In this document: one piece after another, positions 37,401-49,676 of the stretch
Numbering within the stretch: position 1 is the stretch's first letter
How the letters are laid out: every line of letters begins with the position of its first letter
From: Eledone cirrhosa
Taxonomy: Eukaryota
Length of the DNA stretch: 64,000 nucleotides
Assembly: GCA_964016885.1 (NCBI GenBank)
Contig: OZ024745.1
Span: forward strand, 73,966,001-74,030,000
Reading direction: 5' to 3'
Notes under the pieces: generated by a model
Seen by the model: the letters and a program-made list of their open reading frames with translations, nothing else
Databases searched by the model: none
Told to the model about the DNA's origin: nothing
Made by a program: the position numbers and the translations under genes

Positions 37401-39699
37401 GAGAAAGAATCACATTATGATGAAAATATGAATCTTAATAAATAACCACGAAATAAAACCAATATTTGTTACAATAAAATCTTTAAAAATAAATTTAACA
37501 CCCACTGGTATATATTAATCCCTTCTTAATTAATACTGTTACTCTGACTCCTCTCGACAAACCAATTGAAGAAAACGAACAGCAAATACACAAATGTTTA
37601 GATGCAGCTATACATATAATCACTTTAATAAACACTCGGTGTTTTTAACTGATACACACATACCGATTCATATATAAAATTATTTAACACATTTCTCAGG
37701 AAATGTCAACTATCTCGAAGAAAATATATTAGATATGAAATTATTTAAAGTTGTATCTATTATATGAACATACAAAATTTATAATTACTGCATACTTTCT
37801 TGTTTATATTGTCGGTAGGTGTCTGTGTGTGTAGCAGTTAGATTTATTTTCCGCCTTAAGAAATTTTGGCTTGATCTTGCTATATACACACACACATATA
37901 TATATATATATATATATATATATATATATATATATATATATATATATATTTATATATATATATATATATATATATATTTATATATATATTTATATATATA
38001 TATATATATATATATTTATATATATATTTATATATATATATATTTATATATATATTTATATATATATATATTTATATATATATTTATATATATATATATA
38101 TTTATATATATATATATATATATTTATATATATATATATATATATTTATATTTATATATATATATATATTTATATTTATATATATATATATATATATATA
38201 TATTTATATTTATATATATATTTATATTTATATATATATTTATATATATATTTATATATATATTTATATATATATTTATATATATATTTATATATATATT
38301 TATATATATATATATATTTATATATATATATATATTTATATATATATATATATTTATATATATATATATATTTATATATATATTTATATATATATATATT
38401 TATATATATATTTATATATATATATATATTTATATATATATATATATATATATTTATATATATATTTATATATATATATATATTTATATATATATATATA
38501 TATATATTTATATATATATTTATATATATATTCATATATATATATATTTATATATATATTTATATATATATATATATTTATATATATATATATTTATATA
38601 TATATTTATATATATATATATTTATATATATATTTATATATATATTTATATATATATATATTTATATATATTTATATATATATATATATTTATATATATA
38701 TATTTATATATATTTATATATATATATATATTTATATATATATATTTATATATATTTATATATATATTTATATATATATATATATTTATAAATATATTTA
38801 TATATATATTTATATATATATATATTTATATATATATATATTTATATATATATATATGTTTATATATATATATATATTTATATATATATATATTTATATA
38901 TATATATATTTATATATATTTATATTTATATATATATATATTTATATACATATATATTTATATATATATATTTATATACATATATATTTATATATATATA
39001 TTTATATACATATATATTTATATATATATATTTATATATATATATATATTTATATATATTTATATATATATATTTATATATATATATTTATATATATATA
39101 TTTATATATATATATATATTTATATATATATCTATATATACATATATTTATATATATATATATATTTATATATATATCTATATATATATATTTATATATA
39201 TATATATATTTATATATATCTATATATATATATATTTATATATATATATTTATATATATATATTTATATATATATATATATATTTATATATATATATTTA
39301 TATATATATATTTATATATATATGTTTATATATATTTATATATATTTATATAATATATATATTTATATATATATTTCTATATATTTATTTATATATATAT
39401 TTATATATATTTATATATATATATATATATATTTATTTATATATATTTATATTTATATTTATTTATATATATATGTTTATATATATTTATATATATATAT
39501 ATTTATATATATATATATTTATATATATATATATATTTAAAGCATTAAGGATACTATTTATGGTTATCTATATACTAAAACTTTTTATAGTTATATATAT
39601 CTTAAACCCTAAACAGTGAAAGACATTAATTTATTACTACCTTATTACCAGTAAGATAAATAGCTCAATGTAATAACATCAGTCGTCCTACAGAGCAGT

Positions 39700-40088
39700 T
39701 ATATAGAAATCACATGAATCAGAGTTCTGTTCAAACCATTTATTAGCTTACAATTGTTTCGTCCAAACCGAGGTTTGGAGTCTTCGTAGCAATTTTTCAA
39801 TGATTGTTTACATACATGACCTCCTTTCCAACACAAGAGACATCCAGAAACATATGTAAAGATCGATGCACAGTGGGGTGACATCCATTATAATATTATA
39901 ATGGATGTCACCCCACTGTGCATCGATATATACATATGTTTCTGGATGTCTCATGTGTTGGAAAGGAGGTCATGTATGTAAACAATCATTGAAAAATTGC
40001 TACGAAGACTCCAAACCTCGGTTTGGACGAAACAATTGTAACCTAATAAATGGTTTGAACAGAACTTTGATTCATGTGATTTCTCTAT
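39700..40088. mobile_element. Spacerless palindrome (~195 bp arms) with a degenerate HHR in each arm
   Basis: Centre CATCCATTATAAT|ATTATAATGGATG at 39894/39895. Right arm: GCT-ACGAAGA-c-TCCAAAC-CTCG-GTTTGGA-c-GAAA-CAATTG-TA (39999-40040). Confidence 0.85.
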
Positions 40089-40855
40089 ATATTTATATAT
40101 ATATTTATATTTATATATTTATATATTTATATATATATATTTATATATTTATATATATATATATATTTATATATATATATATATATTTATATATATTTAT
40201 ATATATATATATATATTTATATATATATATATATATATTTATATATATATATATATATATATATTTATATATATATATATATATATTTATATATATATAT
40301 ATATATATTTATATATATATATATATATATTTATATATATATATATATATTTATATATATATATATATATATTTATATGTATATTTATATATATATATGT
40401 ATATTTATATATATATATATATATTTATATATATATATATATATATTTATATTTATATATATATATATATTTATTTATATATATCTATATTTATATATAT
40501 ATATTTATATCTATATTTATATATATATATATTTATATATATATTTATATATATATATATTTATATATATATTTAAATATATATATATTTATATATATAT
40601 TTAAATATATATATATTTATATATATATTTAAATATATATATATTTATATATATATTTATATATATATATTTATATATATATATATATATATATATATAT
40701 TTATATCTGTATATATATATATATTTATATATATATATATATATTTATTTATATATATATTTATATATATATTTATATTTATATATATATATATTTAATA
40801 ACGGCGATGAATTAGTTTTGCTAGGGTTTTCATATGAAATCGTGTGTCGAAACAA

Positions 40856-41095
40856 ATATTGTTATACTTGAGGAGGGTCATATTTGTGTAATATTGCCAG
40901 AATTAATAACAGAACAGACTCACTGTTTGGTTGGTTTTCGCATTTCGCTTCTGTATCTTTCATATTGGTAACCTATTAGATTACCGATATAAAAGACACA
41001 GAAGCGAAAAGCGAAAACCAACCAAACAGTGAGTGTGTTCTGTAATTAATTATGGCAATATTACACAAATATGACCCTCCCCAAGTATAACAATA
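40856..41095. repeat. Imperfect palindrome (~120 bp arms)
   Basis: ATATTGTTATACTTG.GGAGGGTCATATTTGTGTAATATTGCC... is mirrored by ...GGCAATATTACACAAATATGACCCTCC.CAAGTATAACAATAT; centre ~40976. Confidence 0.9.
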
Positions 41096-46300: not shown

Positions 46301-47876
46301 AAAAAAAACAAAAGTAATGTAAGTAAGGATATATTGTAAGATGAGCATGAATAAGTTAGATGAAAGTGAGAAAAAAATAATGAATAGAGGATGAATAATC
46401 AAACGTCAAAAAAATGTTTATGTTTACGAAGGATTTTTTCAAGGTGATATAAAGTAAGAACATATTGTATTGTGTAATAATTGTTTCTATGTTAGGCACA
46501 GTGAGAAAAGGTACAGATTAGGGGTTAGAAATTAAAAGAAAAAGAAAAGAAAAGGAAAAGGAAGAAACGGAAGTGATAAATAGGAGTGATATAGAATGAG
46601 TAACAAGTATTATATAATGTATAATAAATAACTTTGAAATAAGGTAGAAAGATGGGTATATTTTTAAAGAAGTATATATAAATATATACATGTGCCTTTG
46701 CGAAAAGGATTCTGAATTGATAAAGTTTAGGATATTAGCTGTATACTTTATGGAAAGTTCTGTGGAATTTATGCAAGCAGAGAGAAAACAAGTCAGTGCG
46801 TCTATTTATTATAGAATTTAAATTAGATATAATGGTAAATTTTTCATTTAGACAGAGATTGCAAGTCTTGGATAGAGAATTGTTCAAGTATGTAGAAGCA
46901 GAAGAAAACTTTTTCCAGAAGAAACCTTATATATACTTCTTTAAAAATATACCCATCTTTCTACCTTATTTCAAAGTTATTTATTATACATTATATAATA
47001 CTTGTTACTCATTCTATATCACTCCTATTTATCACTTCCTTTTCTTCCTTTTCCTTTTCTTTTCTTTTTATTTTAATTTCTAACCCCTAATCTGTACCAT
47101 TTCTCACTGTGCCTAACATAGAAACAATTATTACACAATACAATATATTCTTACTTTATATCACCTTGAAAAAATCCTTCGTAAACATAAACATTTTTTT
47201 TGACGTTAGATTATTCATTATTTTTTCTCACTTTCATTTAACTTATTCATGCTCATCTCACAATATATCCTTACTTACATTACTTCTGTTTTTTTTTAAT
47301 AATACATATCAACATTTTCTTTCCATCGGACATATTATTAAACCCTTAAATATTATTCTTAATACATATTAACAATTTCTTTTCATCGCACATATTATTA
47401 AACCCTTAAATATTATTCTTAATACATATTAACATTTTCATTCCATCGCACATATTATTAAACCCTTAAATATTATTCTTAATACATATTAACAATTTCT
47501 TTTCATCGCACAAATTATTAAACCCTTCAATATACAAACCTTAACTTTACATTATTTTTCTCTTCGTTAATTTTCAAATTCTTTTAATTTATACATTAAC
47601 TTCCAACGGTTTTTCAACCTCTCTATGTAAAACAATATATTTTTCTCAGTTATAAAAGCTATCTCTCTCTCTATTACCCATCTCTCCTCCTATCTCATCC
47701 TTCCTCATTATACTCCCCCCTCCACTTTTTACTCTCATCTCCTCCTCTTTTTCACCCCCCCCCCCTTCAACAAATTTGTTTCCCCAATATCACACATCAA
47801 TCTTAAACTACTTTTCATATGTTGATTTAAAACTGCAGTATCCACAAGTGTTTTTAACCTTCATATCATGTCTTCC

Positions 47877-47947
47877 TATTTTATCTGATGAAAACACAAA
47901 TGTTATTGCATGATGATATTTGTTTTTGAAATGCGCATAATAAAATA
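47877..47947 (+). ncRNA. Type-I hammerhead ribozyme, canonical core (mirror copy 45708-45778 minus)
   Basis: TATTTTAT-CTGATGA-[AAACACAAATGTTATT..ATGATATTTGTTTTT]-GAAA-TGCGCA-TA-ATAAAATA: 8-bp stem I, long stem II, palindromic stem III. Confidence 0.88.
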
Positions 47948-49676
47948 CATGGAACTCTTTTAACCATCTTTTGATTTTATATATTATGTATACTCCAGTC
48001 CTACAAACTGTAGAGTGCTTCCTATCCGATATCTGCATTGCTTTATTGTACTACAATAAAACTCACCTCCTACATATATATATATTTATATATTCATATA
48101 TATATATATATATTCATATATATATATATATATATATATATATATATATATATATATATATATATATATATTTATATATATATATATATATATATATATA
48201 TTCATATATATATATTCATATATATATATTCATATATATATATTTATATATATATATTCATATATATATATATATATATATTCATATATATAAATATTCA
48301 TATATATATATATATTCATATATATATATATATATTCATATATATATATATATATTCATATATATATATATATATATTCATATATATATATTTATATATT
48401 TATATATATATTTATATATTTATATATATATTTATATATTTATATATATATTTATATATATATATTTATATATATTTATATATATATATTTATATATATA
48501 TATATATATATATATATATATATTTATATATATATTTATATATATATTTATATATATATATATATTTATATATATATATATATATATTTATATATTTATA
48601 TATATATATATATTTATATATATATATATATATATATATATATTTATATATATATATATTTATATATATATATATTTATATATATATATATTTATATATA
48701 TATGTATATTTATATATATGTATATTTATATATATATATATTTATATATATATTTATATATATACATATATATATATTTATATATATATATTTATATATA
48801 TATTTATATATATATATTTATATATATATATATATATTTATATTTATATATATATATTTATATATATATATATATATTTATATTTATATATATATATATA
48901 TATATTTATATATATATATATATATATATATATATATATATATATATATATTTATATATATATATATATATTTATATATATATATATATATTTATATATA
49001 TATATTTATATATATATATATATTTATATATTTTTATATATATATATATACATATATTTATATATATACATATATTTATATATATATATATATATATATA
49101 TATTTATATGTATATATTTATATATATATACATATTTATATTTGTATATAGTTTTATACGTATATATATATATATATATATATACCTATATATGTTTATA
49201 TGTATATATATATATATATATATTTATATGTTTATATGTATATATATATATATTTATACGTATATATTTATATGTATATATTTATATATATATAAATATA
49301 TATTTATATGTATATAATATATATATGTATACGCATCGTTCTATACATTTCTACTCATATCATTCTAAGTATTTGCAGGTTTTATAAAATATAAAAAATT
49401 GTATAATGAATACTGAGTCTCTAGACTTAAATAGTTGATGTACATGATGGACACTCATCTATTCTCTTATTACAACCTCATCGGATCTTTTCAAAGGATA
49501 TGAAGATAATTTCAATGAGTTTATAAGTTATTTCAATATTAACGCACACATTACAGAAAACAATTTCTAAGAGTACTAAGTAACGAAGTGAATTGAATAA
49601 GAAGCAACGTTACAATTATCAGACGATCTACACATCTAGCAATCTAGGCAGACGATAATTTCTGCTGTCATGGCGC

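Follow-up and report, generated by a model that had tools for sequence, protein, structure and literature searches.

The stretch of DNA analysed here, hereafter the window, comprises 64,000 nucleotides of the Eledone cirrhosa genome (contig OZ024745.1, positions 73,966,001 to 74,030,000 of the forward strand) and sits in a 3.0-Gb assembly with chromosome-scale contigs. It holds an array of TA-rich tracts strung with four palindromic cassettes, which we attribute to Penelope-like elements (PLEs). Self-BLAST of the window after simple-repeat masking located four inverted repeats between 39.7 and 48.0 kb (positions are counted from the first letter of the window), namely 39707-40082 (97% identity), 40868-41084 (91%), 41941-42572/42766-43406 (93%) and 45684-46681/46927-47971 (87% including gaps) for cassettes 1 to 4, and it found no sequence common to any two of them. 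An earlier note on this DNA had described four unrelated inverted repeats between TA blocks, and its arm lengths agree with these; it overlooked, however, that the cassettes have one-sided tails and that one of them holds the end of an open reading frame (ORF). We consider it highly probable that the cassettes are four truncated head-to-head pairs of PLEs, inserted successively into a pre-existing, interrupted (TA)n tract.

Cassette 1 (39544..40089), assigned to the Hydra-type PLE family F1, is a head-to-head pair made of a tailed arm on the minus strand (39544-39900) and a short arm on the plus strand (39889-40089), which overlap at the junction by a 12-nt palindrome; its 157-bp tail occupies 39544..39700 on the minus strand. 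Cassette 2 (40797..41096) is a head-to-head pair of the putative Neptune/Nematis-type family F2, with a tailed arm at 40797-40975 (minus strand, 60-bp tail) and a short arm at 40975-41096 (plus strand). The order is reversed in cassette 3 (41941..43471), a pair of the putative Neptune/Nematis-type family F3, where the short arm lies at 41941-42676 on the minus strand and the tailed arm at 42675-43471 on the plus strand (61-bp tail), and also in cassette 4 (45661..48072), a pair of the apparently Hydra-type family F4 with a short arm at 45661-46935 (minus strand) and a tailed arm at 46928-48072 (plus strand, 80-bp tail) that overlap by about 8 nt at the junction. Every cassette bears its tail on one side only. 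The cassette 4 spacer contains the last 60 codons of the F4 reverse transcriptase (RT)/endonuclease ORF (46738..46917, minus strand), 90% identical to residues 749-808 of an 808-residue frame found at another locus, L056. Over whole arms, the two arms of a cassette diverge by 2-3% in three cassettes and by about 6% in cassette 2.

Each arm had thousands of first-look candidates in the genome (F1, 2,027; F2, 2,074; F3, 2,610; F4, 3,364), of which 40 per family were scored. Longer copies elsewhere in the genome carry RT and GIY-YIG endonuclease coding frames upstream of the same arm. On sequence grounds, each cassette is the 5'-truncated 3' end of a high-copy, protein-coding PLE family. In F4, the 808-residue stop-to-stop frame lies at L056:1771-4194 (minus strand) between two direct pseudo-long terminal repeats (pLTRs); it has RWI at 47, DKT at 133, YRDD and endonuclease motifs, with linker and endonuclease cysteine motifs CNCPVKNKC (CxCX5C), CNLC (CxxC) and CLH (CxH). 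F1 is 35-45% identical to F4 and shows CNCRSNRTC, CNLC and CQH; the fetched F1 copies end before the RWK/DKT region, so that the RT motifs were scored on F4 alone. By eye, no cysteine pair was seen within the GIY-YIG-like core of the Hydra-type frames. The F3 frames have GLKF (GxKF), DKG, YLDD, a CGRSNCGTC linker (CX4CxxC) and CKGC, and match PF01541 (GIY-YIG) at E 7e-8 and PF00078 at E 3.5e-5, the latter below the cut-off. F2 has a CTNRKCIIC linker (CX4CxxC) before a GIY-YIG-like motif, in copies that exclude the DKG region. Pfam matched three of the eight frames and none of the other five, the 808-residue F4 frame included; membership of F1 and F2 among the endonuclease-bearing (EN+) PLEs was assigned by homology and motifs. 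Judged by motifs, F1 and F4 appear to be of the Hydra type, and F2 and F3 of either the Neptune or the Nematis type. The F4 frame in L056 is unbroken and of the Hydra type, with an asparagine-rich stretch ahead of the linker. At L009, L055 and L056, PLE copies adjoin helicase frames that we take to be Helitron-like.

The TA-rich tracts of the interval sum to 6,710 bp (1,654, 722, 859, 2,215, 1,075 and 185 bp). Tract A (37890..39543) is (TA)n broken mostly by TT, and tract B (40090..40796) also has TT interruptions. A 13-bp target-site duplication has its left copy at the end of tract C (41097..41940) and its right copy at the start of tract D (43472..45660), which continues with domains of CA, TTGA, TTCA and TTCT interruptions; tract E (48073..49336) has TTCA and then TT. 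The duplication flanks cassette 3 (41928-41940 and 43472-43484) and contains the rare TTCT interruption; the interval has six occurrences of the TTCT-containing 10-mer, and the remaining four lie near cassette 4. Interruption types carry on across the cassettes on the same strand, being TT around cassettes 1 and 2, TT, AA and TTCA around cassette 3, and TTCA around cassette 4. Because this pattern runs through the cassettes and cassette 3 has its duplication, the TA tract predates the cassettes, in agreement with the suggestion of the earlier note that a landing tract had been hit repeatedly. We rejected the idea that the elements grew the TA tracts outward, as the polarity of the interruptions is not flipped across the cassettes.

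A special insertion hot spot was likewise rejected. In 199.8 kb of arbitrary genome sequence we counted 29 foldbacks, about one per 7 kb, and 13 of the 29 touch TA. Against this rate, the four foldbacks in the 11.4 kb of the array give a Poisson P=0.087, and per TA base they compare with about seven expected for 6.7 kb of TA. Its size makes the array a large target; it is no special hot spot.

To look beyond the window, 127 loci were mapped to natural reference copies, with the window counted once per family. Arm ends were kept if no more than 20 nt from the tailed end or no more than 10 nt from the short end, which left 217; other arm ends, and F2 arms below 84% identity, were excluded. A run of (TA)3 or (AT)3 lies within 20 nt of 195 of these 217 ends (F1, 57/64; F4, 44/47), compared with 879 of 9,969 background 20-mers (8.8%). 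Together with the family mapping, this bears out the claim that different PLE families target (TA)n.

Each family has two sharp 3' ends, 157, 60, 61 and 80 nt apart in F1 to F4, and scattered 5' ends. Among facing pairs (arms within 1.5 kb of each other), 77 of 79 join a tailed arm to a short one and two join two tailed arms; random mixing predicts about 49%. As the mapped loci had been found through similarity to the window, position-ordered samples were taken as a check. Among the first 100 exact matches listed for the F3 motif, 19 pairs diverge within 5 kb and one converges, judged by eye; the 19 pairs comprise 16 tailed plus short, two tailed plus another untailed end, and one tailed plus tailed. 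For a fifth family, 15 of 17 position-ordered pairs were fetched, and by eye 14 are tailed plus short and one tailed plus tailed. The position samples combined give 30/34 tailed plus short, two tailed plus another untailed end, two tailed plus tailed and no short plus short. Over all samples and five families, 107 of 113 inverted pairs are tailed plus short, and short plus short was found in 0/113. In the literature searched, which left aside subscription papers and supplements, we found no printed statement of a strict tail rule or of PLE twin priming, only qualitative ones. The near-strict pairing of tailed with untailed arms likely says something testable about PLE insertion.

According to published work, a Poseidon protein cleaves the two strands of AT-rich DNA, extends each of them and is predicted to form a dimer; reverse transcription begins at two neighbouring sites inside the RNA, which set the limits of the tail, and hammerhead cleavage is unnecessary in vitro (PMC11167929). 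At a self-complementary TA target, both strands would be cut and each would prime one cDNA; one cDNA from each of the two start sites would yield one tailed and one short arm. If both cDNAs stopped early, the arms would be 5' truncated, and their ends could anneal by a few bases of microhomology. Junctions overlap by 1-12 nt in 42 of 79 pairs and are blunt in five. We tentatively propose such twin priming, by a probably dimeric enzyme that uses each start site once on one RNA template, for thousands of pairs in at least five families and at least two clades; we stop just short of calling it probable.

A less likely explanation, but one to be weighed seriously, is self-priming, in which one cDNA, or one antisense template, would turn back on itself and prime its own copy; alternatively, gene conversion would have made the arms alike at a later time. 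Priming of this kind has been suggested for an antisense template (PMC3846280), and it fits the junctions, which are often at short self-complementary sites. A fold-back in fixed order, however, predicts that one class of arm is always longer; of the 61 pairs with a tight junction, 31 have the tailed arm extending further 5' and 22 the short arm, the two being equal in eight. A short-ended first cDNA, moreover, would be unable to template the tail. Of 65 variants present in exactly two arms, 35 are shared within one locus, against 2.0 expected. Only 17 of 58 pairs have arms that are more closely related to each other than to any other arm, so the case for a shared donor rests on this doubleton count, and gene conversion likewise predicts shared private variants and could have produced them. 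At L051, L092 and L097 the two arms are near-identical to each other and unlike all other sampled copies over 600-1,150 bp, which we count against both self-priming and conversion. The tail rule (107/113), the shared private variants and the freedom of either arm to be longer favour two priming events on one template over fold-back. In 10 of the 19 position-sampled F3 pairs both arms start 10-40 nt upstream of the hammerhead motif, a shared start that may mark the RNA 5' end or a site where the RT stops.

Several points weigh against successive insertion into an older tract as set out above, or limit it. The joining of two primed strands is something that we infer from sequence, and no independent read bridges the junctions. 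A target-site duplication is readable at cassette 3 only; at cassettes 1, 2 and 4, which are flanked by pure TA, it is unreadable. Divergence between arms is similar in three cassettes and does not rank the insertions in time. Tracts of 0.7-2.2 kb are also unusual: in 20 arbitrary 10-kb stretches with 173 TA tracts, the median was 47 bp and two tracts reached 500 bp or more. Some growth after insertion may have occurred.

Minimal type I hammerhead motifs were found, by descriptors and family alignments, in both arms of cassettes 1, 3 and 4, always reading outward; this polarity follows because each arm is an element 3' end in its own sense direction. Descriptors found two and three of the six motifs, hence the confirmation by aligning family copies. 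The location and direction are those given in the earlier note, which had not seen that in cassette 1 the core carries C3->A in both arms. These two motifs lie at 39746..39791 (minus strand; family core CCGAAGA) and at 39999..40043 (plus strand, with an additional helix I mismatch), and they are the only ones with this change among 61 F1-family motifs; C3 is needed for cleavage in a PLE hammerhead (PMC11167929). Both cassette 3 motifs have a U3:A8 core variant, with one helix III change at 42014..42055 (minus strand) and a sequence identical to the family form at 43278..43319 (plus strand). In cassette 4 the core is intact at 45709..45778 (minus strand, one helix I mismatch) and at 47877..47947 (plus strand, 8-bp helix I and palindromic helix III). 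The motif is present in all four families (61, 30, 49 and 43 copies aligned); cassette 2 is without it, being truncated about 80-130 nt downstream of the F2 family hammerhead. Rfam scans detected hammerhead families neither in the window at E<=1 nor on two of the motifs at E<=10, and their hits were microRNA-hairpin and small nucleolar RNA noise alone, under gathering scores. We therefore treat the hammerheads as motifs recognised only by descriptor and eye.

Exact copies of a 37-nt F3 motif number 10,256 across the genome, and those of a 20-nt half-motif from another family 16,718, with 0 for each reversed control; two families thus contribute at least 27,000 exact hammerhead-motif pieces. 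In the 200-kb background the descriptor gave 16 hits, compared with 1, 8 and 1 in shuffled sequence; the genome total may pass 100,000, a figure that this noisy descriptor cannot make firm. In the predicted fold of a read-through RNA, 50/51, 40/41 and 66/67 motif nucleotides pair with the opposite arm. The hammerheads are passengers here, probably inactive in the foldback arrangement.

It is very unlikely that the array is a trap locus, used by the host as a source of long double-stranded or small RNA against many PLE families. Each cassette is predicted to fold into a perfect hairpin if transcribed, a fibrinogen-like exon ending at 49677 is close by, and rotifer PLE copies yield antisense small RNAs (PMC3846280). 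Nevertheless, nothing marks this locus out, as foldbacks occur about once per 7 kb genome-wide and the array is not enriched in them per TA base. Still harder to sustain is the possibility, raised in the earlier note, of a non-autonomous, retrozyme-like system, in which the cassettes would be transcribed, cleave themselves and be re-inserted as palindromes. Animal retrozymes reportedly derive from PLE pLTRs (bioRxiv 10.64898/2026.07.22.740005), short palindromes are very common (11 of the 19 position-sampled F3 pairs have fewer than 130 nt between both motifs), and two F1 junctions recur twice each. However, all but two of the 79 junctions differ (77 distinct), the tail may be on either arm where F1 junctions are alike, and the parents have RT/GIY-YIG ORFs. 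Retrozymes require tandem copies on the same strand (PMC7229834; bioRxiv 10.64898/2026.07.22.740005), whereas each cassette that carries motifs has them on opposite strands, and unit boundaries are hardly ever shared; the motif is also predicted to be buried in read-through RNA, its core is mutated in cassette 1, and cassette 2 lacks it. Long TA tracts are hard to sequence, and in three contig sets and one restriction-site-associated DNA sequencing run the family sequence was seen while no listed piece spans the cassette 4 junction (several window letters are absent from all contigs of those runs, and the allele is probably not in them); that the palindromes or TA lengths are assembly or chimeric-read artefacts is nonetheless scarcely credible, as the arms differ by 2-6% with indels, the tail is on one arm, there is a target-site duplication and more than 100 other pairs have the same anatomy, exact TA lengths remaining assembly-derived.

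The cassettes represent new families, of which both the kind of element and the arrangement are known. A head-to-head, 5'-truncated copy with a tail at one end and a bias for TA has been described for PLEs (PMC8557442, Fig. 2), and the same anatomy appears in PMC3846280 and PMC4209133. According to Craig et al. (2021, PMC8557442), nearly all families of the Hydra clade have (TA)n as their insertion target and bear hammerheads. F4 resembles that clade in its RW, DKT, CxCX5C, CxxC and CxH motifs, C-terminal endonuclease, hammerhead and (TA)n, but the F4 and F1 tails of 80 and 157 bp contrast with the 30-40 bp described (PMC8557442), and the two families differ further in a 3' untranslated part of about 1.2-1.8 kb and in thousands of copies per family. 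Neptune and Nematis elements (CX2-5CxxC plus CCHH) are matched by the GxKF, DKG, YLDD, CX4CxxC and GIY-YIG of F3, the CX4CxxC of F2 and insertion into TA, while the F3 hammerhead differs as a U3:A8 variant. With the inverted pLTRs of Penelope and Poseidon (PMC3846280, PMC8557442, PMC11167929) the cassettes share head-to-head truncation, a tail at one end, junctions with microhomology or palindromes and, at cassette 3, a target-site duplication; the tail is described there as optional or often one-sided, whereas here one tail per pair is close to a rule (107/113 pairs of five families, none of them short plus short).

The motifs resemble the minimal hammerheads that Cervera and de la Pena (2014, PMC4209133) described in metazoan PLEs, with a short palindromic helix III, an extra base after A9 and U3:A8. 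That study attributes opposite-strand pairs of minimal motifs 100-700 bp apart to truncated PLEs and describes minimal hammerheads as having low activity and needing dimerisation; the counts found here (10,256 and 16,718) exceed its 2,000-9,000 per genome. Non-LTR retrozymes are similar in having type I hammerheads in non-coding, PLE-related animal repeats (PMC7229834), and differ in that they are same-strand tandems of 150-450 bp with canonical motifs and circles, while the cassettes are inverted, with minimal motifs and coding parents. Passages of an octopus repeat annotation list active Penelope families and do not mention 'ribozyme' (PMC13282606).

Elsewhere in the window, foldbacks noted at 10.9, 17.4, 55.5-56.5 and 59.3 kb are real inverted repeats; by eye, the hammerheads at 55.5 and 59.3 kb are weak or degenerate, 17.4 kb carries one, and no CUGANGA half-core was found inside the 10.9 kb repeat. 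The interval 55420-56493 holds the stub of a Hydra-type PLE whose ends are inverted; it retains the 3' end of its ORF, broken and on the minus strand, with a CxCX5C linker and endonuclease motifs. A tiny foldback at 17408-17530 belongs to an F3-related family, and at 12645-12803 (minus strand) another PLE has left a piece of its GIY-YIG sequence that is 34% identical to that of F3. Three different PLE-like ends are stacked around short TA runs at 10500-11200, where the foldback at 10935-11040, with a one-sided tail, recurs beside other families at L003, L036, L039 and L194. TA-flanked foldbacks also occur at 59264-59608, with degenerate copies of a hammerhead that L159 carries as well, and at 62909-63152 (inverted repeat of 78% identity). 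Outside these repeats, 49677-50525 (minus strand) is presumably an exon for a fibrinogen-related domain and 56951-57490 (minus strand) presumably one for a coiled coil; both probably belong to a single host gene whose end is about 350 bp away from the TA array. An open frame at 21269-21703 (minus strand) has a C2H2 zinc-finger motif by eye.

In summary, the locus is in itself common PLE debris within a TA tract of unusual length, and its value is that of a pointer. The origin of the tandem and inverted structures of PLEs and of their microsatellite bias has been named an open task (PMC8557442), and passages of PMC11167929 present the steps after priming as unvalidated. The tail rule, the shared private variants and the asymmetry of arm length are three constraints that can be counted and that tell twin priming apart from self-priming. 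If twin priming is true, this genome, with its thousands of pairs and tens of thousands of hammerhead motifs, would offer ready-made data on the last, unsolved steps of PLE integration. TA-flanked foldbacks with outward hammerheads are in this genome what PLE insertion normally leaves behind, at about one foldback per 7 kb, and should not be taken for a new RNA system.

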